A stretch of DNA of 64,000 nucleotides from an uncultured Gammaproteobacteria bacterium (GCA_964641255.1 CAZXMM010000001.1:332302-396301), one strand, 5' to 3'. Numbered from the stretch's first letter, positions 5,598 to 36,742 are shown. Program-made: numbers and translations. The notes: generated by a model not told the origin, from the letters alone.

Positions 5598-6928
5598 TTG
5601 CACTGAACTTGACTTGATGGAGAGAAACTAGAGTAAGTACCACAGTTGGCACAAGTAGAATAGGCGTACTGGGCGAAAGCTGTGGTTCCTTTAGCTAGCA
5701 CAAAACTAGTAGCCATATTTTGGGCTTGAGTCGGATTGCTGGGTAGACTGGTGGCGTCCCACAATTCATTTGTTCCTACAGAATAACCAAGCGTGACGCG
5801 GTATTGCTGCGGCTTATTCAAATTCCCCTGAGTATTGTAGGCAATATTTACCTGGTACATGTTATTTTGTTCATTCCCACAACTAGCAGTAATGGTTCCT
5901 CCCGGTGGAGTTTGAGCCGGAGTTTGGGCTTGAATCGAAAGTATCTCATTGGCGGCGGGAGCAGTCACTGTCAAAACTGGTGACTGGGAGTAAGGGACAC
6001 CGCTGACCCACAAGTAGCCTTGAATATCGTAAGAAGAGCCACTGGCGGCATTGTTCCAACTCCACGTCGCTCCATTGCTAGCACTCACACCACTAAAGAC
6101 TTGGTCAAACTTGGTGGTACCACTGGGGCGAATTGCCAAACTAACCGTGCTATTTTCTGGAATGGGTCCACTAAATTGCCAGGTTCCGGAAATGGAAACG
6201 ACAGCTGGGGTTGGCGGCGTTAGAGTGGAGTTGAGTGTCAGAGTTTCATTAGTGGCCGGGGCAGTAATGGTTTGAATACCAGACGACGCTATGGTTGCAG
6301 CTCCTTGCTGGACATAAGCTTGGATGTCATAAGCTTGGCCGGCCTGAGCGTTCGTCCAACTCCAAGTAGAGTGGTCAGTGGCAGCCAGTCCGGTCAGAGC
6401 CGGACTAAAGAGAAGGTCGCCGACCTTCCTAGCCCCGATTGTAATAGTAGCTCCGGGGGGAATGTAGCCGTTAAAATTAAATTTCCCCGAGATGCTCCTC
6501 GTTAAAGGAGTAGTCGGGGGGGTAGTGGTGGTAATCTTAACAATAGCTTGGTTTGAGGGGGCCACAATGGTAACAATTTCCGATTGATCAACCTTTTTTT
6601 CTCCGGACAAAATTGTGCCCTGGATTTCATAAGCGACCCCAGCCTTAGCACTCTCCCAACTCCAGGCGGTGCCATCCACTGCTGGGATGTTTTGCGCTAC
6701 AGTCGTGAAGTCGGTCATACCCACCTCTCTGGCTCCAATGGCAACGCTCGCTCCGGCGGGAGCTATTCCATTGATATCGATCACACCCGAAAGGGCTACT
6801 AAAGAATTAGCTATTGGGGTAGACTTTTGAGGTAAGGTGGTCTGGGGATTGAGGGCGAAAAAATAGACAAGAGCGCCAAAGATGAACAGTGACAAGACAC
6901 CAATGATAATTAGTAGAAACTTGGTCAC
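5594..6928 (-). CDS. membrane-anchored secreted repeat protein (three ~100 aa tandem beta-rich repeats plus Cys-containing C-terminal domain)
   Basis: N-terminal TM anchor; three repeats sharing SG.W.F.G.IP.G.T..IGAR.VG...F....(A/T)WSW.NA.AG..YDIQ...; Thr/Pro linkers; C-terminal segment with 5 Cys. Confidence 0.5.
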   Translation of the reverse strand: MTKFLLIIIGVLSLFIFGALVYFFALNPQTTLPQKSTPIANSLVALSGVIDINGIAPAGASVAIGAREVGMTDFTTVAQNIPAVDGTAWSWESAKAGVAYEIQGTILSGEKKVDQSEIVTIVAPSNQAIVKITTTTPPTTPLTRSISGKFNFNGYIPPGATITIGARKVGDLLFSPALTGLAATDHSTWSWTNAQAGQAYDIQAYVQQGAATIASSGIQTITAPATNETLTLNSTLTPPTPAVVSISGTWQFSGPIPENSTVSLAIRPSGTTKFDQVFSGVSASNGATWSWNNAASGSSYDIQGYLWVSGVPYSQSPVLTVTAPAANEILSIQAQTPAQTPPGGTITASCGNEQNNMYQVNIAYNTQGNLNKPQQYRVTLGYSVGTNELWDATSLPSNPTQAQNMATSFVLAKGTTAFAQYAYSTCANCGTYSSFSPSSQVQCN

Positions 6929-6978
6929 CTAAACAGTGTCTCCAATTACCCAGTGAGTGTCAATAAGTTAAATAACCC

Positions 6979-8148
6979 TTAGCCCGTGTGAAGAATCTTT
7001 TCGAGGTAGGGTGTAACACTCCACATAGTTTTTAGAGCCAGATACTCCTGGCGAGTCACTTTAGTATCGGCGGTGGCATTTTTTACCGCGCGAATCATTA
7101 AATTCTTTGCCGTGTGTTCGGAGGAAACAAATTGAACAACGTCGGCGCGGTAGTGTTCCTGCCTAAGAAGAAGGGTGCGAAACGTGTCTGTAAGGATATC
7201 CCCGAGACGTTCCCTTAAGATTTTCTCCCGCAGGATAGCCCCAATCGCTGGGGTATAGGTTTTTTGTTCCATTTGCACTTGTAGTTCGTGATGGCAACAG
7301 GGCACAGCGAAAATCATTTCGCTATCCCACTGCACTGCTTTGGCGAGGGCCTCGTCAGTGGCAGTATCACAAGCGTGGAGAGATAAAACAATATCCGGCT
7401 TAGAGAGGGGTGTGAAGTCAATAATTTTAGTTTCTACAAATTTCATATTTTGCCAATCCAACTCTTTGGCATGTCGGCGGTGGGTTTTTAGCAGATCGCC
7501 CCTGACATCAAGGCCTACAAGGGTGGTGGGGAGATGTAAAATTTCGTTAAAGTAATGGTACAGGGCAAAAGTTAAGTAAGCATTGCCACAGCCACAGTCG
7601 ACAATGGTCATACTACTTTTATGAGTAAGGTTAGTTCCTATGGCCAAAGACACCTGTTTGATAAATTCGTTAATTTGCTGGAATTTGCTTTGCATATCCG
7701 CTTTAATGCGTTCGTCTCTTGTCGCTATTCCAATAGTCTGAAGCATCAGAAGCGCATTCTCTAAATTGATCGGGTAGTTTTTATTGCGGTCATGACCCAG
7801 ATCCGGCTCAAGCGCCAGAGCGTGTTCACTCTCTTTGGCTTTATACCCTTTGCCACTGAGGGAGTAGGATAGCGTTTTTGTCCGAGTAACCACCTGGACT
7901 TGAGAAAAATTAGCCCCAGACAATTTTTTTATTTGCTGGTCAGCTTCGACAAAATCAAAGTTCTTCGTCAGATCCCGGCTATCATCAAAAAAAGAAAATT
8001 GAAAATGCAGCCGATTGCGAAGCAGTACAGGACGAATAGTTACTTTCCTCCACTGACTCTTATTTACTCCACTGAGAATAATCTTAATAAGGTCATTGGG
8101 ATTTAAGAGCTGAGCGCGGGCGAGATCAAGTATTTCCGGGTAGGTCAT
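6979..8148 (-). CDS. class I SAM-dependent methyltransferase (Methyltransf_32-like)
   Basis: SAM-binding motif IVDCGCGNAYLTFAL, acidic loop GLDV, downstream HACDTATDEAL and PCCHHEL motifs. Confidence 0.55.
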   Translation of the reverse strand: MTYPEILDLARAQLLNPNDLIKIILSGVNKSQWRKVTIRPVLLRNRLHFQFSFFDDSRDLTKNFDFVEADQQIKKLSGANFSQVQVVTRTKTLSYSLSGKGYKAKESEHALALEPDLGHDRNKNYPINLENALLMLQTIGIATRDERIKADMQSKFQQINEFIKQVSLAIGTNLTHKSSMTIVDCGCGNAYLTFALYHYFNEILHLPTTLVGLDVRGDLLKTHRRHAKELDWQNMKFVETKIIDFTPLSKPDIVLSLHACDTATDEALAKAVQWDSEMIFAVPCCHHELQVQMEQKTYTPAIGAILREKILRERLGDILTDTFRTLLLRQEHYRADVVQFVSSEHTAKNLMIRAVKNATADTKVTRQEYLALKTMWSVTPYLEKILHTG

Positions 8149-17906: not shown

Positions 17907-17973
17907 GAAAAGATTCTATCAGAAGTCCGAACATTGTACAGACCTTATCAAATTTCGTACCTAAACTCTCAGG

Positions 17974-18044
17974 CTGCGGGACTTGGATTCGAACCAAGAT
18001 AAACGGATTCAGAGTCCGTTGTCCTACCATTAGACGATCCCGCA
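17974..18044 (-). tRNA. tRNA-Gln (anticodon CUG), CCA not encoded
   Basis: Manually folded: 7-bp acceptor (TGCGGGA/TCCCGCA), D arm GTCT/GGAC, anticodon stem ACGGA/TCCGT with loop CTCTGAA, T arm CTTGG-TTCGAAT-CCAAG; discriminator G. Confidence 0.8.
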
Positions 18045-25149: not shown

Positions 25150-26208
25150 ATGACTAGTCTTACCCAAATTGCTTACATTGCTCGTAAAAGTATCAATCTG
25201 GGGATACTGATAATTGTCCTTATCACCATTATTCGCATTGTGGTTGGCTTTGCTTATAGCCTGTGGCAAGAGCGCTTTCCCCCGCCTCCCCCGGCCGCCA
25301 CGGTGGCGTTTGGCAAGCTCCCTTATCCTAGGGGCGAAAACTCTCTAGCTACACCGTCAGCTCTTAGCTACACAGTGGAGACCATCGATGGTACATTGCC
25401 AGTGTTGCCACCAAATTTGGAGGTTTACTTTGTTCCTCAACCCACCGCCAGTTTTGGTACTTTCCAACGAATGACTAGTAAGGCGGGACTATTTGGGTTT
25501 TCGGGAGTTCCCGTAAAGCTTGGTCAAAATGTTTGGAAATTTACTGATCAGACCAATCCCCTGCGGACCATGAATATTGACGAAATAAGCGGTGATTTTC
25601 GGATCGTCTATAACTATGTGGCCGACCCTACTTTGTTTCAAACTAAGGCGTTTATCTCCGACGATCAGGCTATTGGACTGGCACGAAGGGCCTTTAATGA
25701 ACTGTTGGAGGGTTCGGGATACGAGAAATCTGCACCCACTCTGACTTACTACCGTTATGACGCGGGGATCCTGGTTGAGACCACTTCTTTGTCTCAAGCC
25801 GACGCAGTAGCAGTAAGCTTTGTCCATGATCCGATTGGGGAAACCCCCGTGGTGTCACCGGATTTCAAACAAGGACTAGTTTCAGTAATTGTCACTAGCT
25901 CCACTGATCCTAAGCGGCAAGTGTTGGAACTGCGCTATTTCCACGACGCTATTGATTTGGGGAATTTTGCCACTTATCCGGTTATTACCAGTCAGCAAGC
26001 TCTAGAAAAACTCGAATCCCAAGAAGCGATCTTTGCCAGCTTGCCCTCCCAAATCTCCGGACAGGTTACCATTCGGGAAGTGAGCCTGGTCTATATGCTT
26101 TCCTATCCCGCCCAAAGTTACCTACAGCCCATGCTGGCTTTTAGCGACCAACAGGGCTTTATTGCTTATGTCCCTCTGGTCACGCCGGAGTGGCTTGAGG
26201 CACCCTAA
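25150..26208 (+). CDS. hypothetical membrane-anchored extracytoplasmic protein
   Basis: N-terminal TM helix, poly-Pro linker; no recognisable catalytic motif. Confidence 0.4.
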   Translation: MTSLTQIAYIARKSINLGILIIVLITIIRIVVGFAYSLWQERFPPPPPAATVAFGKLPYPRGENSLATPSALSYTVETIDGTLPVLPPNLEVYFVPQPTASFGTFQRMTSKAGLFGFSGVPVKLGQNVWKFTDQTNPLRTMNIDEISGDFRIVYNYVADPTLFQTKAFISDDQAIGLARRAFNELLEGSGYEKSAPTLTYYRYDAGILVETTSLSQADAVAVSFVHDPIGETPVVSPDFKQGLVSVIVTSSTDPKRQVLELRYFHDAIDLGNFATYPVITSQQALEKLESQEAIFASLPSQISGQVTIREVSLVYMLSYPAQSYLQPMLAFSDQQGFIAYVPLVTPEWLEAP

Positions 26209-27241
26209 CCGTTTCGAGCGTTTGTTCCTCCTGGAAGCGTTCTATTGCAAGCTCAATCAGTTTATCGATAAGTTCAGAGTAAGATAGCCCACTCGCCTCC
26301 CAAAGTTTCGGATACATACTACTGTTAGTGAAGCCGGGAATTGTATTGATCTCGTTTACAAGAATTTCACCTCTCGGAGTAAGAAACATATCTACTCTCG
26401 CCATTCCTTCTGCACAGAGCGTAGTAAAGGCTTTAATTGCAACTCCTTGGACTTTCTTAGTTTGTTCTTGTGTCAATTTCGCGGGGATTACTAAAGAGGC
26501 AGCATTCTTGTCCTGGTACTTTGCTTCATAATCATAAAACTCATGATGGGCAATTATTTCTCCAGGAAGGGAAGCTATCGGGCTTTTATTACCCAGTACT
26601 GAACACTCAATCTCCCTCCCCTCAATCATTTGTTCGATGATAATCTTGCGGTCAAAACTGAAAGCTAGCTCAACTCCCTGGTTAAGTTCACTTTCTTTGT
26701 GAGCCTTAGTGATCCCGACCGATGAACCGAGATTTGCAGGTTTGATAAAACAAGGAAAACCTAGGTGTTCTCTAATCTCTTTGTTGTCGATGGACTCTTT
26801 TGAAGAAAACACAAGAAACTTACCGATTGGAATGCCGGCTTGTTGTAATAATCTTTTCATCACGTCCTTATCCATACCAATCGCTGAGCCCAGAACGCCA
26901 GCTCCAACAAAAGGGATACGAAGAAGTTTTAAAAGACCCTGGATCGTTCCATCTTCGCCGTTCGGGCCATGAAGTACAGGGAAAACAATATCAACCCGCT
27001 CGGGAGTCAGTAGTGAGGTGGGCGTCAGAGTTTTTAACTGATTTTCTGGTTCAAGATCAATTGGTCTGTCAGCGAGGAGCCACTTACCGTGTCGTGTTAT
27101 ACCAATGAAGCTGACCTCATATTTGTTAGGGTCCAAAGCCAAGGCAATATTTCTCGCGGAACTGATTGAAACTGTGTGCTCTGCCGACTGGCCGCCAAAG
27201 ATAATAACAAGCTTTAGCCTACGCTTAGCCGTTCTTTGCAT
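26180..27241 (-). CDS. ddl: D-alanine--D-alanine ligase
   Basis: KLVIIFGGQSAEHTVS..., HGPNGEDGT.QG, C-terminal ATP-grasp motifs (ARVDMFL...NEINTIPGFT). Confidence 0.9.
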   Translation of the reverse strand: MQRTAKRRLKLVIIFGGQSAEHTVSISSARNIALALDPNKYEVSFIGITRHGKWLLADRPIDLEPENQLKTLTPTSLLTPERVDIVFPVLHGPNGEDGTIQGLLKLLRIPFVGAGVLGSAIGMDKDVMKRLLQQAGIPIGKFLVFSSKESIDNKEIREHLGFPCFIKPANLGSSVGITKAHKESELNQGVELAFSFDRKIIIEQMIEGREIECSVLGNKSPIASLPGEIIAHHEFYDYEAKYQDKNAASLVIPAKLTQEQTKKVQGVAIKAFTTLCAEGMARVDMFLTPRGEILVNEINTIPGFTNSSMYPKLWEASGLSYSELIDKLIELAIERFQEEQTLETVRVPQATPA

Positions 27242-28919: not shown

Positions 28920-28994
28920 TGGTACCGCATAGGGGAATCGGACCCCTGTTGCCAGAATGAGAATCTGACGTCCTAGCCACTAGACGAATGCGGC
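28920..28994 (-). tRNA. tRNA-Glu (anticodon CUC), CCA encoded
   Basis: Manually folded: acceptor GCCGCAT/ATGCGGT, D arm GTCT-AGTGGCTA-GGAC, anticodon stem-loop TCAGA-TTCTCAT-TCTGG, T arm, 3' ACCA. Confidence 0.8.
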
Positions 28995-29016: not shown

Positions 29017-29044
29017 TTGACAAGAAAAGGGCAGGTGGTACAAT
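29017..29044 (+). promoter_or_regulatory. sigma70-like promoter TTGACA-N16-TACAAT upstream of greA leader
   Basis: Read directly; followed by IR GTTGTC-agcta-GACAAC at predicted 5' end. Confidence 0.45.
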
Positions 29045-29102
29045 ACACCAGTTGTCAGCTAGACAACCCGGCTCGGAAGTAGAAAGATCAACTCTCGCGA
29101 GG

Positions 29103-29133
29103 CTTTCTGAATATCAGAAAGTCTTCTTTTTTT
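29103..29133 (+). terminator. intrinsic terminator-like hairpin (CTTTCTGA-ata-TCAGAAAG + U-run) in greA leader, ~40 nt before greA ATG
   Basis: Perfect 8-bp stem followed by TCTTCTTTTTTT. Confidence 0.45.
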
Positions 29134-29174: not shown

Positions 29175-29663
29175 ATGACAAAGACAATTCATAAATCCAC
29201 AATCATGCTGACGGCCGAGGGACTGGCTAACTTGCAACAAGAGTTGCGTGAGCTTAAAGAAGTAAAGCTACCGCAAATTGTCGAGCGAGTAGCTACGGCT
29301 CGGGCGGACGGAGATCTGTCAGAAAACAGTGCTTATCAATTTGGTCGTCAGGAGCAAGAATTTATCCAGGGCCGCATTGACGAACTAGAGGGTATTTTAA
29401 AAAACTCCACTCTTATTCAAAAAACTGCGGTGGCTAGTAACGGCACTAAAACAGTGGACGTGGGACGTAAAGTGACAGTGGCCATTGGGGGTAAAAAGCA
29501 GATTTTTCATATCGTCGGTGATTGGGAAGCTAAACCTTTGGAGAAAAAGATTTCTGGCAGCTCTCCCCTCGGCAAAGCCTTAATGGGCAAAAAAGTGGGC
29601 GACAAAGCCGAATTTGACGCCCCAGCAGGCAAGATCCAATATACAATTGTAGAAATAGAGTAG
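29175..29663 (+). CDS. greA: transcription elongation factor GreA
   Basis: N-terminal coiled-coil with ...DLSENSAYQF... and C-terminal FKBP-like domain; 162 aa. Confidence 0.9.
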   Translation: MTKTIHKSTIMLTAEGLANLQQELRELKEVKLPQIVERVATARADGDLSENSAYQFGRQEQEFIQGRIDELEGILKNSTLIQKTAVASNGTKTVDVGRKVTVAIGGKKQIFHIVGDWEAKPLEKKISGSSPLGKALMGKKVGDKAEFDAPAGKIQYTIVEIE

Positions 29664-29735: not shown

Positions 29736-29784
29736 GTTTTCGTGCGTATTGCTAAATAGCAGGTCATCCGTGATAATTGTTCTT

Positions 29785-31866
29785 ATGGCCCAAGCAATTG
29801 ACGAAATCATTAAAAATAGGAAAGAAAAATTGGAAAAACTTGAGGCTGTGGGCCTGTCAGGATTTCCCGCTTGGGAAGGGGTGCGCGAGCCCATCGCCGT
29901 AGTCAGAGAGAAGAAACAAGCCGCAGCGGCTAGTGTGGTGGGCAGGATCAGCGCAATAAGGGGACACGGAAAATTAGTTTTTCTTGATTTAATTGATGAA
30001 AGTGGGAAAATCCAGATCTCCTTTAAGCCCGATAACTTAGGCAAAGCCTTTACTAACATCTCTCTCCTTGATATGGGCGATTTTATCAGTGCTTCGGGAT
30101 CACTTTATACCACGGAAGCAGGAGAACTGACGATCGAAGCCGCCAAATTTTCACTGTTAACCAAAGCGCTGCGGCCCCTACCCTCTAGTTGGTACGGATT
30201 TAATGATGTAGAAGAACGGTACCGGCAACGGTATGTAGATCTGCTCGTTAACCCCGAAGTTAAAGAAGTTTTCTTGGTGCGGACGAAAATCACTAAGCTT
30301 CTTAGGCAAAAACTTGACGCTGCCGGCTTTACTGAGGTAGAGACACCAGTGTTACAGCCGCTCTATGGTGGAGCTACCGCCAAGCCATTTATAACCCATC
30401 ATAACGCCCTAGACATCGATCTCTACTTGCGTATCTCTGACGAACTTTATTTGAAACGTTTAATTGTTGCTGGCTTTGAAAAAGTCTATGAGATTGCCAA
30501 AGATTTTCGTAACGAAGGCATCGATCGTCAACACAACCCCGAGTTTACTATGCTCGAGTTTTATTGGGCCTACGCTAACTATGAGGACTTAATGAAATTT
30601 ACTGAAGAGATGCTGTCAGCTATTGTTAAGGAGATAAAAGGAAGTTATAAATTTGTCTATCAAGGGCAGGAATACGACTTTACTCCACCGTGGCCAAGAG
30701 TTAGCTTCCGAGATCTTATTAAGGCAGATACCGGTATCGATATAAATGTTGCAAATACAGAGGGAAAGCTACTTGCTGCCATAAAAAAGACCGAGACTAA
30801 GCTGGATTTGGAAGGTGTAGTGGGCTATGCCGCACTTCTAGACACTTTTTATAAAGTGGTTAGTCGTCCCAAAATTATTGGGCCACTTTTTCTTTATGAC
30901 CACCCGGTCGAATCCAAGCCACTGGCCAAGAAAAAAGCAACCGACCCATCCAAAGCCGCCAGCTTCCAACTGTTAGTAGGTGGATTTGAATGGCTCAATG
31001 CTTATAACGAACTCAATGATCCTATTGATCAGCGGGCCAGATGGGAAGAGGAACTAAAACTAGCAGAACTGGGGTCTGAGGAGTTTCAGATGATTGACGA
31101 GGATTACATTCGGGCGCTGGAATATGGGATGCCACCAACTGCTGGTTGGGGAATGGGAATTGATCGGATGACCGCTTTTCTTACTGATCAACATACCATT
31201 AAAGATACGATTTTGTTCCCCACTATGAAGCCAGAACACCCCCCTGGTACTAGGCCGGCTAGTGTGGTGGTAACCCCGCAAGTAAAAGGGACGCCTTTAT
31301 CATTGACGAGAGAGCGGGCCATAAAACTTCTTCATGACAAGGTGCAAAATGAAAATTTGCGGCGCCACTCCTATAGCGTGGAAGCAGTAATGAGAGCTCT
31401 AGCTAGAAAGCTGGGGGGAGACGAGGACAAGTGGGGGCTACTTGGCCTCCTTCATGACGGCGATTATGAACTAACCAAGGACGCGATCCAAAAACATACT
31501 ATTCTCATGATGGACTGGCTCAAAGAATTGGGGGAAACGGATAGGGAGTTTATTCAAGCGTTTGAATCGCACAATCATGAGCGAACTGGATTTAACGAGC
31601 CAGTCACACTAATGGAGTGGGCCTTATTTTGCTGTGACGAGTTAACCGGACTCATTGTGGCAGTAACCTTAATTCAACCCTCAAAGAAGATTGCTGATGT
31701 AACAGTGGAAGGAGTCTTAAAGAAATGGAAACAAAAGGGTTTTGCTGCTGGAGCTAATCGAAAAGATATTGAGCAGTGCGAAGTGCGATTGAGAATCCCA
31801 CTGCCTGAGTTTATTGCTCTTACTCTTTCGGCTATGCAAGCAATTGGACCCCAAATTGGGTTATGA
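29785..31866 (+). CDS. lysS: lysine--tRNA ligase (class II) fused to C-terminal YqeK-like HD phosphohydrolase domain
   Basis: LysRS anticodon-binding and class II core (motif 2/3; ...GIDRMTAFLTDQHTIKDTILFP) through ~residue 495, then ~195 aa with HD-domain ligands RRHS, LLHDGDYE, HNHE, CCDEL arranged as in YqeK-type HD hydrolases. Confidence 0.75.
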   Translation: MAQAIDEIIKNRKEKLEKLEAVGLSGFPAWEGVREPIAVVREKKQAAAASVVGRISAIRGHGKLVFLDLIDESGKIQISFKPDNLGKAFTNISLLDMGDFISASGSLYTTEAGELTIEAAKFSLLTKALRPLPSSWYGFNDVEERYRQRYVDLLVNPEVKEVFLVRTKITKLLRQKLDAAGFTEVETPVLQPLYGGATAKPFITHHNALDIDLYLRISDELYLKRLIVAGFEKVYEIAKDFRNEGIDRQHNPEFTMLEFYWAYANYEDLMKFTEEMLSAIVKEIKGSYKFVYQGQEYDFTPPWPRVSFRDLIKADTGIDINVANTEGKLLAAIKKTETKLDLEGVVGYAALLDTFYKVVSRPKIIGPLFLYDHPVESKPLAKKKATDPSKAASFQLLVGGFEWLNAYNELNDPIDQRARWEEELKLAELGSEEFQMIDEDYIRALEYGMPPTAGWGMGIDRMTAFLTDQHTIKDTILFPTMKPEHPPGTRPASVVVTPQVKGTPLSLTRERAIKLLHDKVQNENLRRHSYSVEAVMRALARKLGGDEDKWGLLGLLHDGDYELTKDAIQKHTILMMDWLKELGETDREFIQAFESHNHERTGFNEPVTLMEWALFCCDELTGLIVAVTLIQPSKKIADVTVEGVLKKWKQKGFAAGANRKDIEQCEVRLRIPLPEFIALTLSAMQAIGPQIGL

Positions 31867-32471
31867 TAAGGAAGAAAAATGATATGACCAGAGACGAACT
31901 ACTAAAAGCTCTAAACGCCCTTGTCAAAAATGACAACCTCAAACGCCACCATCTGGCAGCAGCAGCTTGTATGAAAGGTATCGCCCTGTACCTAAAAGAT
32001 CAGGATAAGAAAAAATATAAGGGTATTGATGAGGCAATGTGGGAAGCCGTAGGTCTCCTCCACGATGCCGATTACGAACGTACCAAGGATCGTCCGGTTG
32101 AACATGGCATGATTGTAATTGACGAAGTTAGATCTTTTGGTATTGAGCTTCCAAGTGACGTAGCTCAAGCGATTAAATTTCATAATTTTGAAAATACCCA
32201 TGCGACCGAATCACCAATGGGTTGGGCCATCTATACATGTGACCCCCTGACCGGGTTGATCGTTGCCTGCGCTCAAACCACACCCGATCACAAACTGGCA
32301 GGAGTAAGTTTGGAAATGCTTTCGGAAAAATTTAACGATACCAGTTTTGCCAAAGAAGTCTCTCGTGACAAAATTAAACTGTGCGAAGAGAAGCTGGCAA
32401 TAAAGCTGGAAGATTTCCAAAAAATTTGTCTTACGGCAATGCTGACAGTTGCTGAGGAAATTGGGTTGTGA
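31863..32471 (+). CDS. standalone YqeK-like HD domain phosphohydrolase (paralog of lysS C-terminal domain)
   Basis: Collinear similarity to the LysRS C-terminal extension (NLKRHH, GLLHDADYE, FHNFENTHA, YTCDPLTGLIVA, ...EEIGL); start overlaps lysS stop (ATGA). Confidence 0.6.
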   Translation: MIRKKNDMTRDELLKALNALVKNDNLKRHHLAAAACMKGIALYLKDQDKKKYKGIDEAMWEAVGLLHDADYERTKDRPVEHGMIVIDEVRSFGIELPSDVAQAIKFHNFENTHATESPMGWAIYTCDPLTGLIVACAQTTPDHKLAGVSLEMLSEKFNDTSFAKEVSRDKIKLCEEKLAIKLEDFQKICLTAMLTVAEEIGL

Positions 32472-32627: not shown

Positions 32628-33251
32628 ATGGCAAAAATTTATCTTATTCGCCACGGCGAGTCTGTTGCTAACACTGAGGGTAAGTATCAAGGGCAAACCT
32701 ACGATACCCCCTTATCCATCTTGGGAGAAAAACAAGTGGCAGCACTTAGTAATCGATTTTCCACTGTTTTGGTTGACGCAGTCTTTGCCAGTCCGCTTAA
32801 AAGAACTGTCCAAACAGGAAGGGCAGTGAGTAGCGCCCTAACTCTAGTGCCCGATCTTATCGAAACGAATCACGGTTTGTGGGAGGGGTTGTCAAAAGAA
32901 GCCATTAAAAAGCGGTGGCCCGACTTATACGACCTGTGGCTGGTTAAGCCCTCTAGAGTGCAATTTCCCGAAGGTGAACATTTTGCCCAAACGGCTCAAA
33001 GAGCGATCACTTTTGTCACCCCGTTGTTAGCAAGGTCCGGTACGTACGCGGTAGTAACTCATTCAAATATTATTTCAATACTGCTTATGCACTTTCTGGG
33101 GAGACCCTTGGATGCGATGTGGGAGTTCGCCATTCAGCCTACCAGTGTAAGCTTAATTGAAACTCAGAGCGACGGAGCGATAGTTAGGTATTATAATGAT
33201 GTTACGCATTTGGAGGGGCTCGAGTCAGACCTTTCAGTGCACGCTATCTAA
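32628..33251 (+). CDS. histidine phosphatase family protein (phosphoglycerate mutase-like)
   Basis: LIRHGES catalytic RHG motif; 207 aa. Confidence 0.8.
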   Translation: MAKIYLIRHGESVANTEGKYQGQTYDTPLSILGEKQVAALSNRFSTVLVDAVFASPLKRTVQTGRAVSSALTLVPDLIETNHGLWEGLSKEAIKKRWPDLYDLWLVKPSRVQFPEGEHFAQTAQRAITFVTPLLARSGTYAVVTHSNIISILLMHFLGRPLDAMWEFAIQPTSVSLIETQSDGAIVRYYNDVTHLEGLESDLSVHAI

Positions 33252-33263
33252 TTTGTTATTCCT

Positions 33264-34541
33264 ATGCTTGATATTAAATTCATCAGAGACAACCGAGACA
33301 AAGTTAAATTAGGAACAAAAAATAAGAATGGTGACCCGAGTAAGGTCGACGAGGTTATTGCTTTAGATGAAGCCTATCGTAAACTGCTTGGGCAAGTGGA
33401 AATACTGAGAAGTGAGCGCAATAAGGCAAGCAAAGAGGACCGAGAAAAGGGTAAGGAAATAAAGGCCAAACTAAAGGAAATCGAACCCCAGCTTAAAAAA
33501 GTCGAAGACGAACTAGCCACCACGATGAGACATATTCCCAATATGCCTTTTGACGAAGTTCCGGTGGGTAAAGATGATTCCCAAAATGTTGTAGTTCGCA
33601 AATGGGGCGAACCTAAAAAGTTTAGTTTTACTCCTAAAGATCACGTCGAATTAGGAGAGAAATTGGGAATCCTTAACCTGGAAACTGCAGGCAAAGTTTC
33701 TGGCACTAGATTCGGCTACCTAATGGGTGATTTAGCAAGAATGGAAATGGCTTTAGTCCAGTTTGCCTTTGATGTTCTTACAAACGAAGAGGTCCTGACC
33801 AGACTTGCTAGTGGGTACAATTCTAAGCCGTTTGTCCCTGTGATCCCGCCCGTCATGATTAAGCCTGAGGTTTACATTCGGATGGCCAGACTTGACCCTG
33901 GTCAGGAGGTGGAGCGCTATTATATGCCAAAAGATGACATCTATCTGATTGGTAGTGCCGAACACACCCTGGGTCCACTCCATATTGACCAAACCCTAGA
34001 AGAGCCAATTCTGCCCATAAGATATGTTGGATTCTCCACTGCTTTTAGACGAGAAGCTGGGTCTTACGGAAAAGATACCAAGGGAATCCTTAGAGTTCAC
34101 CAATTCGATAAGGTGGAAATGGAGACATTTACTGTTGAAGAAGACTGCGTTAAAGAACAAGACTTCTTGGTAGCTATTCAAGAATACATTATGCAAGCTC
34201 TGGAATTACCTTACCAGGTTGTTATGGTTTGCACTGGTGATATGGGGACTCCCGATGCTAGACAAATTGATGTTGAGACCTGGCTTCCGGGACAAAATAG
34301 ATATCGTGAGACTCATTCCGCTGATTTAGTGACTGACTACCAGTCTCGTCGACTAAATATCAAGGTGAAAAGGAAAAATGGCCAAACCCAACTGGTTCAT
34401 ATGAATGATGCCACGGCAATAGCCATCGGAAGAACCCTGATCGCAATTATTGAGAACTATCAAAACGAAGATGGGAGCATCACTATTCCCAAAGTTTTAC
34501 AAAAATATTTAGGCAAAGAGAAAATTCTTCCCAAATCTTAA
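33264..34541 (+). CDS. serS: serine--tRNA ligase
   Basis: N-terminal coiled-coil tRNA-binding arm plus class II core motifs; 425 aa. Confidence 0.9.
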   Translation: MLDIKFIRDNRDKVKLGTKNKNGDPSKVDEVIALDEAYRKLLGQVEILRSERNKASKEDREKGKEIKAKLKEIEPQLKKVEDELATTMRHIPNMPFDEVPVGKDDSQNVVVRKWGEPKKFSFTPKDHVELGEKLGILNLETAGKVSGTRFGYLMGDLARMEMALVQFAFDVLTNEEVLTRLASGYNSKPFVPVIPPVMIKPEVYIRMARLDPGQEVERYYMPKDDIYLIGSAEHTLGPLHIDQTLEEPILPIRYVGFSTAFRREAGSYGKDTKGILRVHQFDKVEMETFTVEEDCVKEQDFLVAIQEYIMQALELPYQVVMVCTGDMGTPDARQIDVETWLPGQNRYRETHSADLVTDYQSRRLNIKVKRKNGQTQLVHMNDATAIAIGRTLIAIIENYQNEDGSITIPKVLQKYLGKEKILPKS

Positions 34542-34664: not shown

Positions 34665-35693
34665 GTGGAGCAAAATAAATTAGTAAAAGTCACGGTTCTT
34701 TACAACGAAATCCAAGCGCTTCCTTACCAAGATTCTTCTGCTAATCTGACAGTTGACGGTGCCAAGGACGACGCCGTACTGATCGCCAAATCCTTAGCTG
34801 AGAAGGGTTATACCACTGACCTCTTTCAATTAACTAATCAGAATCAAACAGAACTAAAGGATTATCCAACGACAATTTTTTTTAATTTATGTGACGGCAT
34901 TGGTGACGTACCCAATTCTGAAGCCGAGGTGCCCAGATTACTAGAGTCTTATGGCCGTTTTTATACTGGGGCGGGACAGGAGGGAATGATTAAAACCACC
35001 CAAAAAGCCCAAACTAAGGCTATCTTTAGTTCTTTGGGGGCCCTGACTCCCGAATTTGCCGTCGTAAACCAGGTTCCTACGGTCCTACCCAGTGGACTTA
35101 GCTTCCCTCTATTTGTTAAGCCTCAAGGTCAAGACTGTAGTATTGGTATTACCCAAGAGTCAGTAGTTGAGGATCTCATTAGTTTGCAGCGAGAAGTAAA
35201 GCGTATTTTAGATTCCTACGCCGGGTCAGTTTTGATCGAACGCTATATTGAGGGTCGGGAAGTGAACCTAACGCTGGTTGATAATGGTTTGGATGTTACT
35301 ATGCTGCCAATTTCAGAAATTGTCTTTGGCGATGAAATTACGGCTTACGGGGAAAGAAAGTTTGTTGACTTTAACGCCAAGTGGGAGGAGAACTCCATTA
35401 CCTACAAAAACACAGTCGGTAAGTGTCCAGCGGATTTGCCAAAAGAAGTTCATGACAAGATTAAAGCACTGGCGCTTAAAATCTATCCGGCCGTGGGGGC
35501 ACGCGATTACGCTCGTATCGATATCCGTTTGTCAGCGGATCTTACGCCCTACTTTTTAGAAGTAAATGTTAATCCTGATTTATCACTCGAAGCCGGAGCC
35601 TTTCGTTCGGCGACGGCAGCTGGCTGGGACTATCCGACTTTTATGGAAAAAATTGTTAAGTTTGCTCTCAAGCGCTATTCACTGTCCCAATGA
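34665..35693 (+). CDS. ATP-grasp ligase, D-Ala-D-Ala ligase-like (paralog 1)
   Basis: C-terminal ATP-grasp motifs (IERYIEGREVNLTLV, ARIDIRL...YFLEVNVNP); N-terminal Ddl-like domain lacking canonical Ddl substrate motifs. Confidence 0.6.
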   Translation: MEQNKLVKVTVLYNEIQALPYQDSSANLTVDGAKDDAVLIAKSLAEKGYTTDLFQLTNQNQTELKDYPTTIFFNLCDGIGDVPNSEAEVPRLLESYGRFYTGAGQEGMIKTTQKAQTKAIFSSLGALTPEFAVVNQVPTVLPSGLSFPLFVKPQGQDCSIGITQESVVEDLISLQREVKRILDSYAGSVLIERYIEGREVNLTLVDNGLDVTMLPISEIVFGDEITAYGERKFVDFNAKWEENSITYKNTVGKCPADLPKEVHDKIKALALKIYPAVGARDYARIDIRLSADLTPYFLEVNVNPDLSLEAGAFRSATAAGWDYPTFMEKIVKFALKRYSLSQ

Positions 35694-36742
35694 AGAAAAA
35701 ATCCTTAACAAGTGTCATCATCCTTTACAACCGGGTTAGTGGCGAGACTACTGCACCAGCGTCTCTAGCCGATGAGGATACTATCTGGACTGCCGTTGAG
35801 GCCCAAAAGGCGCTGGTATCTTTAGGCTACCGGGCAGAGCTGTTGGAAGTCACGGTGGATAATATAACTCGTCTTAACGAAGCTAGGGGTGATGTGTTTC
35901 TGAATTTAGCTGAGGGGATCGGCAGTCTCCCAAAGAGCGACTATCTAGTTGCTCGGGAGCTAGAAAATCTTAACCGACCATTTACTGGCTGTTCTTCCGA
36001 GGCGCTTCATTTTACTAACGATAAGATCGCTACTAAAGATTTACTGGTGGCACACCAGCTTCCCACCGCTGCCTACCAAGTGTTTAGTAGTGGTGACGTA
36101 TCCGATTTTAGTTTAACCCTCCCAGTAATTGCTAAACCTAGCCGGGAGGATTCTAGCCTGGGAATATCACTCGATTCTGTCGCTACTAATCGGGTTCAGT
36201 TGAAACAAAAAGTGGCGACCCTTAACAAACTTTACTCCGATCCTATTTTAGTCGAAGAGTACATTGACGGCAGGGAACTCAATGTAACGGTGATTGGCTA
36301 CGGCGATCAAGCACTTGCCCTGCCGATTTCAGAAGTGGTTTTTGGAGACTGGTTTAGCGGCAAATACAAAGTGGTCGATTTCTCGGCCAAATGGGAAGAG
36401 GGTACTCCCGCTTTTCAAAATTCCTGGGGAGTTGCACCAGCACAAATTGATGAGCCGACTCGACAGAAAGTTGTAGACTACGCTCTCCTTGCTTACAAAC
36501 TGACTAACTGTCAGGGCTATGCGCGAATAGATTTCCGGTTGGGCACAGACAATGTGCCCTATATTCTTGAGGTTAACGCTAATCCTGGAGTGGCTCCAGA
36601 TTCGGGAGCGGTGCGATCTGCTAAGGCAGCCGGTTATTCTTATGAGAAATTTTTAGAACTGATCATTACTTTAGCTAGGAATCATTATGACCAAGAAGAG
36701 GTCCGTTTATCCCGGTTTGCCAGCACGTTCGCTTTTTCCTAA
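35690..36742 (+). CDS. ATP-grasp ligase, D-Ala-D-Ala ligase-like (paralog 2)
   Basis: Same architecture (VEEYIDGRELNVTVI, ARIDFRL...YILEVNANP); start overlaps previous stop (ATGA). Confidence 0.6.
   Translation: MKKKSLTSVIILYNRVSGETTAPASLADEDTIWTAVEAQKALVSLGYRAELLEVTVDNITRLNEARGDVFLNLAEGIGSLPKSDYLVARELENLNRPFTGCSSEALHFTNDKIATKDLLVAHQLPTAAYQVFSSGDVSDFSLTLPVIAKPSREDSSLGISLDSVATNRVQLKQKVATLNKLYSDPILVEEYIDGRELNVTVIGYGDQALALPISEVVFGDWFSGKYKVVDFSAKWEEGTPAFQNSWGVAPAQIDEPTRQKVVDYALLAYKLTNCQGYARIDFRLGTDNVPYILEVNANPGVAPDSGAVRSAKAAGYSYEKFLELIITLARNHYDQEEVRLSRFASTFAFS

Follow-up and report, generated by a model that had tools for sequence, protein, structure and literature searches.

A lysyl-tRNA synthetase fused to a predicted HD-domain phosphohydrolase of a family linked to lysS in candidate-phyla bacteria

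In a 64,000-nucleotide stretch of DNA from an uncultured bacterium (GCA_964641255.1, CAZXMM010000001.1:332302-396301; this whole stretch is referred to here as the window), the open reading frame (ORF) of lysS, the gene for lysyl-tRNA synthetase (LysRS), continues past the end of the synthetase into an HD domain, and a second, free-standing HD gene follows on the same strand. Judged from its sequence, the fused domain is an intact di-metal HD phosphohydrolase, predicted to be catalytically intact, and it belongs to a large family of proteins of ~188 amino acids. Neither component is new in kind, one being a class II LysRS and the other an HD phosphohydrolase; what is added here is the evidence linking the two, namely adjacency in 73 of 80 related loci, 58 fusions in both domain orders, intact catalytic residues and independence from the class of LysRS. 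What emerges is an uncharacterized, very common family of HD hydrolases tied to LysRS, and the literature searched contained no description of a LysRS-HD fusion, of this HD family or of its link to lysS, and nothing pertinent on COG2316, TIGR00295 or pairings of aminoacyl-tRNA synthetases with HD domains in candidate-phyla bacteria. As a tentative explanation, to which we give somewhat less than an even chance, the HD unit would be a LysRS-tethered hydrolase for adenylyl nucleotides made by LysRS, such as diadenosine tetraphosphate (Ap4A).

The synthetase portion of the fused protein is complete. Residues 7-484 match NF001756 with 584.1 bits (cutoff 468; 488-position model) and TIGR00499 with 536.8 bits (cutoff 427.6), placing them among the class II LysRS. 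The last synthetase residue, E484, ends at nucleotide 31236, and the frame remains open for 209 further codons. This extension is matched by Pfam PF01966 (28.7-31.5 bits, cutoff 22, over residues 522-601) and by the HDIG model TIGR00277 (33.3 bits at the top of a 30-33 range, cutoff 27.6), and these matches, together with its H..HD..D ligands, place it in the HD superfamily. An earlier note, made from the sequence alone, had proposed that LysRS and an HD domain share one ORF, and the model matches bear this out, as does contig L085 (Logan assembly of SRR14932608), in which all 2,723 bases of 29749-32471 are identical to the window. Alternative starts of the fused ORF are GTG 29770, giving 698 amino acids, and TTG 29749, giving 705; the 693-residue product has no exact database match because public gene calls use the 698-residue form from GTG 29770.

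The same note had raised the objection of an assembly chimera, which was examined and is answered by L085, identical across the junction. That the fusion is an artefact, whether a chimera or a sequencing error that erased the lysS stop codon, would fit the separation of lysS and HD in most relatives and the resemblance of the linker to a former intergenic spacer, but it is hardly credible against an identical 2,723-bp sequence in a separately assembled contig, a composition with no obvious break across the junction, stop-free in-frame fusions with linkers different from the window's in loci L005 and L006, and dozens of full-length LysRS-HD fusions elsewhere. L005 and L006 are among the window's closest loci by similarity of GreA (68% and 64%) and of YkuD, and a search with a junction-spanning query recovered further LysRS-HD fusions. 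An assembly chimera was rejected on the grounds of L085, the fused relatives and the unbroken composition; confinement of the fusion to the window genome was rejected because LysRS-HD fusions recur in metagenomes.

Six di-metal ligands can be assigned in the fused protein: H528, the dyad H557/D558, H571, H596 and D618 (H33, H62/D63, H76, H101 and D123 in the numbering of the 198-residue extension, to which 495 is added to obtain fused-protein positions). A review of the superfamily treats a six-residue set of the form H..HD..H..H..D as the signature of a dinuclear metal site, YqeK being an example (PMC8177086). The ligand assignment of the earlier note held in that the ligands are intact in both HD copies of the window, but H571 (within QKHT) had been overlooked, and the second His of the SHNHE motif is not conserved in either an alignment of 42 family members (A1) or a later conservation set of 496 HD domains. 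Across the 496 domains the six ligands are conserved at 93-100%, every substitution of the sixth being Glu. Conservation at 93-100% also extends to D65 and E67, which flank an aromatic residue to give the motif HDxD[YW]E (Asp at position +2 after the dyad in 494 of 496 sequences), and to G127, F158 and R164, with K152 being Lys or Arg; in the fused protein the family-specific conserved residues are D560-Y561-E562, K647, F653 and R659. An AlphaFold2 model built from A1 is all-helical, with a mean predicted local distance difference test score (pLDDT) of 93.5 and a predicted template modelling score of 0.90, the first linker residues falling below a pLDDT of 50. In total, 1,740 homologues of the extension were detected; the best 120 of the 1,740 are stand-alone proteins of ~187-188 amino acids with 56-73% identity, and those of the 120 with informatively named sources come from Patescibacteria/candidate phyla radiation (CPR) and Microgenomates-group genomes. 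At most, the sources name the homologues "HD/HDIG domain protein" or "phosphohydrolase".

The genomic association with lysS was evaluated in one genome per species, which yielded 217 encoding loci; the best 80 of the 217 were kept for context counts, with neighbours assigned by tblastn using the window's neighbouring proteins. Where the records among these 80 are informatively titled, they are Woesebacteria, Amesbacteria, Gottesmanbacteria, Blackburnbacteria and other Microgenomates-group metagenome-assembled genomes. They share a conserved array, greA - lysS - HD - (His-phosphatase) - serS, in which lysS lies upstream of HD on the same strand in 73 loci, usually directly, serS lies downstream on the same strand in 61, greA precedes lysS in most, and a His-phosphatase gene separates HD from serS in about 14. 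Seven loci depart from the lysS-HD order, two of them at contig ends and three with greA directly before HD. The two genes are closely spaced, with a gap of at most 100 nucleotides in 35 loci and of at most 20 nucleotides or an overlap in 24, and several loci show overlaps of 6-15 nucleotides. The lysS gene of the array encodes a class II enzyme in 46 loci and the unrelated class I enzyme in 27, an in-situ class replacement at one slot (for example, L016 4463-6016 and L007 4562-5995). HD sequences from the two contexts are intermixed, with mean identities of 0.65 and 0.60 within the contexts and 0.62 between them.

Genes inserted between lysS and HD are heterogeneous and provide no single functional clue. 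They include NIF3 (three times), 23S_rRNA_IVP (four times), a YfbR-like HD_3 gene (twice), DUF2000 (L015 4252-4632), Band7/NfeD, Bro-N, a radical SAM enzyme and a toxin. A conserved ORF of ~100 amino acids without a Pfam match also lies between lysS, of either class, and HD in at least eight species loci (L001 4689-4994, L032, L037, L056, L057, L065, L074 and L079). Ham1/RdgB, YfbR-like HD_3 and Nudix genes occur as neighbours of the HD array; in L092 (3225-4432) the HD gene overlaps the start of a Ham1/RdgB (ITPase) gene, the source of this HD protein being named as Roizmanbacteria. Immediately after the fused lysS-HD of L005, on the opposite strand (6577-7278, minus), lies a gene for a protein with a Nudix box (GGKIRLGEMAKETALRELEEETGL), whose N-terminal region resembles a DNA-binding domain.

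Fusions of LysRS with the HD domain are widespread. In an exhaustive search with HMMER, 1.84 billion cluster representatives were screened. This supplied the survey that the earlier note had proposed and showed that the architecture is no one-off but recurs many times in CPR metagenomes: 58 of the 459 proteins collected combine a class II LysRS with HD, 32 of them near full length (671-1072 amino acids), and one protein, P0220, has the reversed order HD-LysRS. Further architectures were LysRS-HAD-HD, LysRS-NUDIX-HD, LysRS-DUF2000-HD, LysRS-B3_4-HD and LysRS-tRNA_bind-B3_4-HD. The domain is also fused to Ham1 (P0224) and, in the 656-residue P0283, forms the end of a PAS-PAS-GGDEF-HD protein, where it scores 161 bits against the family hidden Markov model (HMM); the cyclase motif of P0283, GGEEF, looks active, and HD stands in the place usual for an HD-GYP or EAL domain. 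The 54 fused domains are scattered over 28 separate all-fusion clades in a neighbour-joining tree of the 496 HD domains, although the tree is a simple one of 187 columns from which an exact count of events would be unreliable. The 28 clades, the differing linkers and the one reversed order indicate repeated fusion or fission, and a single origin of all fusions is unlikely. None of the 54 fused domains has lost any of the five His/Asp ligands, and each has Asp or Glu as the sixth; fused HD domains have not decayed in the manner of the HD domain of the beta subunit of glycyl-tRNA synthetase (GlyRS-beta). There was no class I LysRS-HD fusion among the 459 proteins, the junction-spanning query being biased toward class II, and the overlapping or nearly abutting class I lysS and HD matches lie in different frames.

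Some class II LysRS proteins carry extra C-terminal B3_4, tRNA_bind, DUF2000, NUDIX or HAD domains (P0204, P0244, P0228, P0234, P0262, P0272 and P0193), and these are possibly appended editing or clean-up modules. B3_4 has the fold of the PheRS editing domain; DUF2000 is represented by PDB 2gax and presumably has a PTH2-like fold. At locus L004 (104-2475) a LysRS-HD gene is called at 481 amino acids, without the anticodon-binding domain, directly after IS605 OrfB (TnpB), and LysRS similarity continues upstream of the called start; insertion of the element may have disrupted this gene.

The 22-residue linker of the window protein is flexible and has no counterpart in relatives. Its DNA contains a Shine-Dalgarno-like sequence, AAAAGGGA (31284-31291), 11 nucleotides before TTG 31303, the codon at which stand-alone homologues begin (MITRE.. 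in the homologues, SLTRE.. here), and in L005 the original Met is retained inside the fused ORF. Gaps between lysS and HD measure from -15 to ~90 nucleotides in unfused relatives, and 67 (L005) and 49 (L006) nucleotides separate the two parts in fusions. The linker most likely represents the old spacer between lysS and HD, now translated, and the simplest history of the fusion would be loss of the lysS stop codon with read-through of a ~60-nucleotide spacer.

The next gene downstream had been described as a collinear paralogue of the extension, and so it proved, the two aligning end to end with 38% identity (E 9e-42). Its product scores just below the cut-offs of PF01966 (21.5 bits) and TIGR00277 (15.9 bits), with all ligands present (H29, H67, D68, H81, H107 and D127 in 202-residue numbering), and it belongs to a subfamily of ~25 members at 54-70% identity in which the ligands are intact in 24/24 members, the last being Asp in 22 and Glu in 2. 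The ATGA-coupled start at 31863 that the earlier note assumed is less likely than ATG 31884, which has a Shine-Dalgarno-like AAGGAAG 8 nucleotides upstream and which public gene calls also adopt (P0341); as ATG 31884 lies ~18 nucleotides past the lysS stop, the two genes probably do not overlap by ATGA. Nor is the gene a free duplicate of the fused domain. In L086 (70% identity) and L087/L088 (56%) its ortholog is the only HD gene and follows an unfused lysS, which identifies it as a divergent, resident positional ortholog; recent tandem duplication was rejected on this basis and on those of the 38% identity and the separate ortholog group. That the locus has two HD units is thus explained by a fused lysS-HD placed ahead of the resident HD gene. 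The LysRS core of the window is closest to those of L028 (68%) and L015 (62%), with L005 and L006 at only 43-44%, and this difference from the affinities of GreA and YkuD suggests that Microgenomates have exchanged lysS among themselves, possibly in an already fused form.

At the level of sequence profiles, YqeK is the closest relative of the HD domain that has been characterized biochemically and structurally. When the A1 profile was searched against all PDB sequences, it matched the YqeK-family chains 8jja (6.8e-5), 8wmy, 2o08, 2ogi and 3ccg (0.019); the sole non-YqeK match was weak and unrelated (2png, fatty acid synthase, E 0.23), and no other HD subfamily, PgpH/HD-GYP included, was matched at E<=10. 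Residues H33/H62/D63/H76/H101/D123 align with H29/H58/D59/H91/H117/D135 of Streptococcus pyogenes YqeK, which are its metal ligands (PMC11857287), so that the six-ligand dinuclear set of YqeK is present in full. Scanned singly, 32 of the 42 family members matched the YqeK model TIGR00488 (best E 5.4e-6), 40 matched RNase Y, 36 the NadD-YqeK model PRK07152, 31 PRK12703, the archaeal Trm56-HD fusion (best E 1e-7), and 23 TIGR00295 (best E 6e-5), with scores far below the cut-off wherever one was reported. The association with nadD is not seen, the neighbours here being greA, lysS and serS; in L004 a CTP_transf_like gene lies two genes downstream.

The structure comparison proposed in the earlier note was also carried out. 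In fold-comparison scores the model ranked the GlyRS-beta HD domain (11.7/11.5), PgpH (11.5), 2pq7 (11.4), HD-GYP (11.2) and YqeK (11.0/10.5) close together, YqeK having the highest identity among the top-ranked matches (21-24%), and Foldseek gave E-values of 5e-4 for GlyRS-beta, 4e-3 to 7e-2 for YqeK and 1.5e-2 for PgpH. YqeK is therefore among the top matches, but the GlyRS-beta HD domain and PgpH rank about equally, and comparison of the predicted fold does not discriminate among HD subfamilies. The domain is best described as a distinct sister family in the HDIG group, with YqeK's catalytic metal centre and without YqeK's known substrate contacts.

Ap4A is made by aminoacyl-tRNA synthetases, with LysRS as the best-known source, and must be removed; its known removers, ApaH, YqeK and Nudix enzymes, have patchy distributions, and to our knowledge nothing is known of Ap4A removal in the CPR. 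In the explanation that we tentatively favour, the HD unit would be a YqeK-like nucleotide pyrophosphohydrolase with two metal ions held by H..HD..H..H..D. LysRS would convert lysyl-AMP and ATP or ADP into Ap4A, diadenosine triphosphate (Ap3A) and related dinucleoside tetraphosphates (Np4N), the HD unit would cleave these adenylyl dinucleotides to ADP and AMP, and tethering, or translational coupling in unfused relatives, would put the hydrolase at the source of the by-product. This proposal draws on the YqeK-type metal centre and on YqeK being the sole characterized relative detected by profile, on the standing of LysRS as the classical Ap4A source, and on the Nudix, HAD, Ham1 and GGDEF partners of HD. 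Among the sources of Ap4A, class II LysRS is a major one, and structures of LysRS/LysU with bound Ap4A have been solved (PMC10148737). There is also a producer-cleaner precedent in the mycoplasma NadD-YqeK fusion, for which hydrolysis of analogues of NadD side products has been shown in vitro (PMC9426524).

Several observations weigh against this explanation. The earlier note had placed the HD domains in the YqeK branch, and the PDB profile matches, the six aligned ligands and the single His at the fifth position agree with it; yet of the two models named there for an HMM search, only PF01966 was matched by the extension, and TIGR00488 matched neither the fused HD domain nor the paralogue at E<=1. 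Lys62 of YqeK (HDYAK), which contacts the nucleotide phosphates and is required for activity (PMC11857287), gives way here to an aromatic residue with conserved acidic neighbours (HDxD[YW]E), a substitution that looks unfavourable for a tetraphosphate, although in other HD phosphatases acidic residues in this place are catalytic. The nucleotide-binding residues L172, F180 and T183 of YqeK fall in a C-terminal half that could not be aligned by HMM, and none of the four nucleotide-binding residues of YqeK (Lys62, Leu172, Phe180 and Thr183) was thus recovered. In 27 of the 80 species the HD gene follows a class I LysRS, and the literature searched contained no report of class I LysRS making Ap4A, which makes an explanation by Ap4A alone less convincing. 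Outside the CPR-type greA-lysS-HD-serS array one relative was examined, P0427 (185 amino acids), and its gene is not beside lysS. Finally, other LysRS proteins of these lineages have DUF2000 or tRNA_bind as their sole fusion partner, and one is joined to an enolase fragment, so some mergers of operon neighbours may be neutral.

In the main alternative, less than likely but far from negligible, the family would consist of general house-cleaning or salvage hydrolases for nucleoside triphosphates, deoxynucleoside triphosphates, damaged nucleotides or nucleoside monophosphates in a salvage-dependent genome, the link to lysS being inherited operon structure and the fusions near-neutral losses of a stop codon between genes transcribed together, without chemistry specific to LysRS. 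The acidic HDxDxE motif recalls the HDxxE of YfbR-type phosphatases. The lysS-serS interval gathers Ham1/RdgB, YfbR-like HD_3 twice, Nudix and His-phosphatase genes, HD is fused to Ham1 in P0224, and the HD sequence is indifferent to LysRS class; P0427 and the fusions of LysRS to unrelated downstream genes fit as well. In mycoplasmas, 8-oxo-GTP is a further substrate of the YqeK domain, which has been termed a versatile diphosphatase (PMC9426524). Against inherited operon structure alone stand the tight adjacency, with 6-15 nucleotide overlaps, kept across a deep clade despite many insertions elsewhere in the array, the recurrence of fusions in many HD clades and in both domain orders, and the retention of the ligands in every fused copy.

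A tRNA-directed role is unlikely. Here the HD domain would bind the acceptor arm or act on tRNA(Lys), for example in repair of 2',3'-cyclic phosphate or 3'-phosphate ends, possibly as part of a LysRS quality-control module with B3_4 or DUF2000. Lysine, ATP and tRNA(Lys) are all that the two LysRS classes have in common, and the link exists with both; the LysRS-tRNA_bind-B3_4-HD, LysRS-B3_4-HD and LysRS-DUF2000-HD architectures and the separate DUF2000 gene between lysS and HD point the same way, as do the matches to PRK12703 and RNase Y and the structural likeness to the GlyRS-beta HD domain. The latter serves recognition of the tRNA acceptor arm, its HD dyad is replaced by SK in E. coli, and none of the nucleotides tested bound to it (PMC8464048). 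Such degeneration is not seen here, where the six ligands are essentially invariant in the 496 sequences, which points to catalysis rather than mere binding; small nucleotides are suggested by the GGDEF, NUDIX, HAD and Ham1 partners, and no RNA-binding motif was identified.

Less probable still is a HINT-like adenylate hydrolase, acting on released lysyl-AMP, on mis-activated aminoacyl-adenylates (ornithine, homocysteine and others) or on lysine-AMP adducts as a pre-transfer clean-up for both LysRS classes. HINT proteins hydrolyse the lysyl-AMP generated by LysRS, both LysRS classes make lysyl-AMP, which would fit the linkage to both, and the acidic HDxD[YW]E, which takes the place of the lysine that binds phosphate in YqeK, could serve to recognise an amino group. 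However, we know of no HD-domain enzyme that hydrolyses such adenylates, and acidic residues after the HD dyad are commonly catalytic in other HD phosphatases.

Returning to the tethered hydrolase of LysRS-made adenylyl nucleotides, a wider form of the proposal, possible if doubtful, would make the HD protein a dedicated LysRS partner in candidate-phyla bacteria that hydrolyses adenylate-derived LysRS products, either Ap4A/Ap3A or released or mis-activated aminoacyl-adenylates, and is coupled or fused to whichever LysRS class is present; in some lineages, with B3_4, DUF2000 or Nudix, it would form an undescribed LysRS quality-control and alarmone-control module. If Ap4A is degraded, this would be the first case of a synthetase that contains a hydrolase for the alarmone-like by-product it makes itself, and the Ap4A hydrolase of Microgenomates would be identified. 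If it is not, the link to both LysRS classes would point to new lysine-, adenylate- or tRNA(Lys)-related chemistry. The survey also shows LysRS classes swapping at one conserved slot and LysRS gaining candidate editing domains.

The features of the window around the fused gene are collected in Table 1. The promoter-like site likely starts a greA-lysS/HD-HD-PGM-serS transcription unit, and in the scan that listed it no plus-strand terminator-like site was found in the intergenic gaps from greA to serS. A 12-bp hairpin followed by a T-run (29099-29125) lies between this site and the greA start at 29175 and may act as a leader or attenuator. Between 27000 and 36000, Rfam models matched a tRNA gene only and no leader RNA family. 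Within 11 kb there are also three ATP-grasp genes of the D-Ala-D-Ala-ligase-like type, namely a ddl-like gene (26180-27241, minus strand) and two overlapping tandem paralogues right after serS (34665-35693 and 35690-36742, both plus strand), and the tandem pair is also present in the relatives L086 and L087.

Table 1. Features in and around the fused lysS-HD gene, in window coordinates
Feature	Coordinates	Strand	Remarks
tRNA-Gln(CTG)	17972-18044	-	further upstream
tRNA-Glu(CTC)	28920-28994	-	between YkuD-like gene and greA
Promoter-like site TTGACA-16-TACAAT, TG-extended	29017..29044	+	upstream of greA; 11/12 matches, consensus match only
greA, transcript cleavage factor	29175..29663	+	PF03449/PF01272; first gene of conserved array
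Fused lysS-HD ORF	29785..31866	+	693 amino acids from ATG 29785; from the ORF list
LysRS anticodon-binding OB domain	29932..30156	+	residues 50-124; PF01336 48.2 bits
Class II LysRS catalytic core	30208..31236	+	residues 142-484, end ..FPTMKPE; PF00152 294.9 bits
Linker HPPGTRPASVVVTPQVKGTPLS	31237..31302	+	22 amino acids, H485-S506
HD domain	31303..31863	+	residues L507-L693 (187 amino acids) of fused protein
Second, free-standing HD gene	31884..32471	+	195 amino acids; alternative ATG 31863 gives 202 amino acids
Histidine-phosphatase (PGM-like, His_Phos_1)	32628..33251	+	optional array member
serS, seryl-tRNA synthetase	33264..34541	+	conserved downstream array end

Among known systems, YqeK (COG1713/TIGR00488), the symmetrical Ap4A hydrolase of Gram-positives, is likewise an all-helical HD protein of ~190 amino acids with a dinuclear H..HD..H..H..D site whose six ligands align and whose fifth position is a single His, and its gene likewise adjoins or fuses with that of an adenylate-forming enzyme, NadD for YqeK and LysRS here. 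It differs in having HDYAK where this family has HDxD[YW]E, in a C-terminal half with which the conserved K..F...R region of this family could not be aligned, in its gene partner (nadD rather than lysS), and in its family model TIGR00488, which the fused domain and the paralogue miss. The cyclic-dinucleotide phosphodiesterases PgpH and HD-GYP, which act on cyclic di-AMP and cyclic di-GMP at dinuclear or trinuclear sites, have an H..HD..H..HH..D motif (PMC8177086); they carry HDIGK, and HH where a single His (SHN) is found here. This family has neither a GYP motif nor a seven-transmembrane or REC partner, and the likeness found is one of fold only. The likeness to the GlyRS-beta HD domain is likewise structural only (12-16% identity), the dyad lost in the E. 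coli protein contrasting with the full set of conserved ligands here, so that the degenerate dyad of tRNA-binding HD domains is not found in this family.

The HD domains of Trm56-HD (PRK12703) and TIGR00295 are about as similar in sequence as that of YqeK (1e-7 and 6e-5), and Trm56-HD provides another instance of the same HD type fused to a tRNA enzyme, although scores are far below the family cut-offs. Among LysRS fusions the comparison is with LysX, an MprF-LysRS fusion in which Lys-tRNA is used to lysinylate lipid; there too a class II LysRS is joined to a second catalytic domain that uses or processes the LysRS product, the difference being lipid lysinylation there and a phosphohydrolase partner here. 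The mycoplasma NadD-YqeK fusion (PRK07152; JCVISYN3A_0380) has another partner enzyme and another HD subfamily, and the function set beside it for LysRS-HD is a proposed one. NadD-YqeK pairs an HD diphosphatase with the nucleotidyl-transferring enzyme whose side products it clears (PMC9426524); a comparable arrangement is proposed for LysRS-HD, and NadD-YqeK is the closest functional analogue of a LysRS-HD fusion that would combine producer and cleaner in a single protein.

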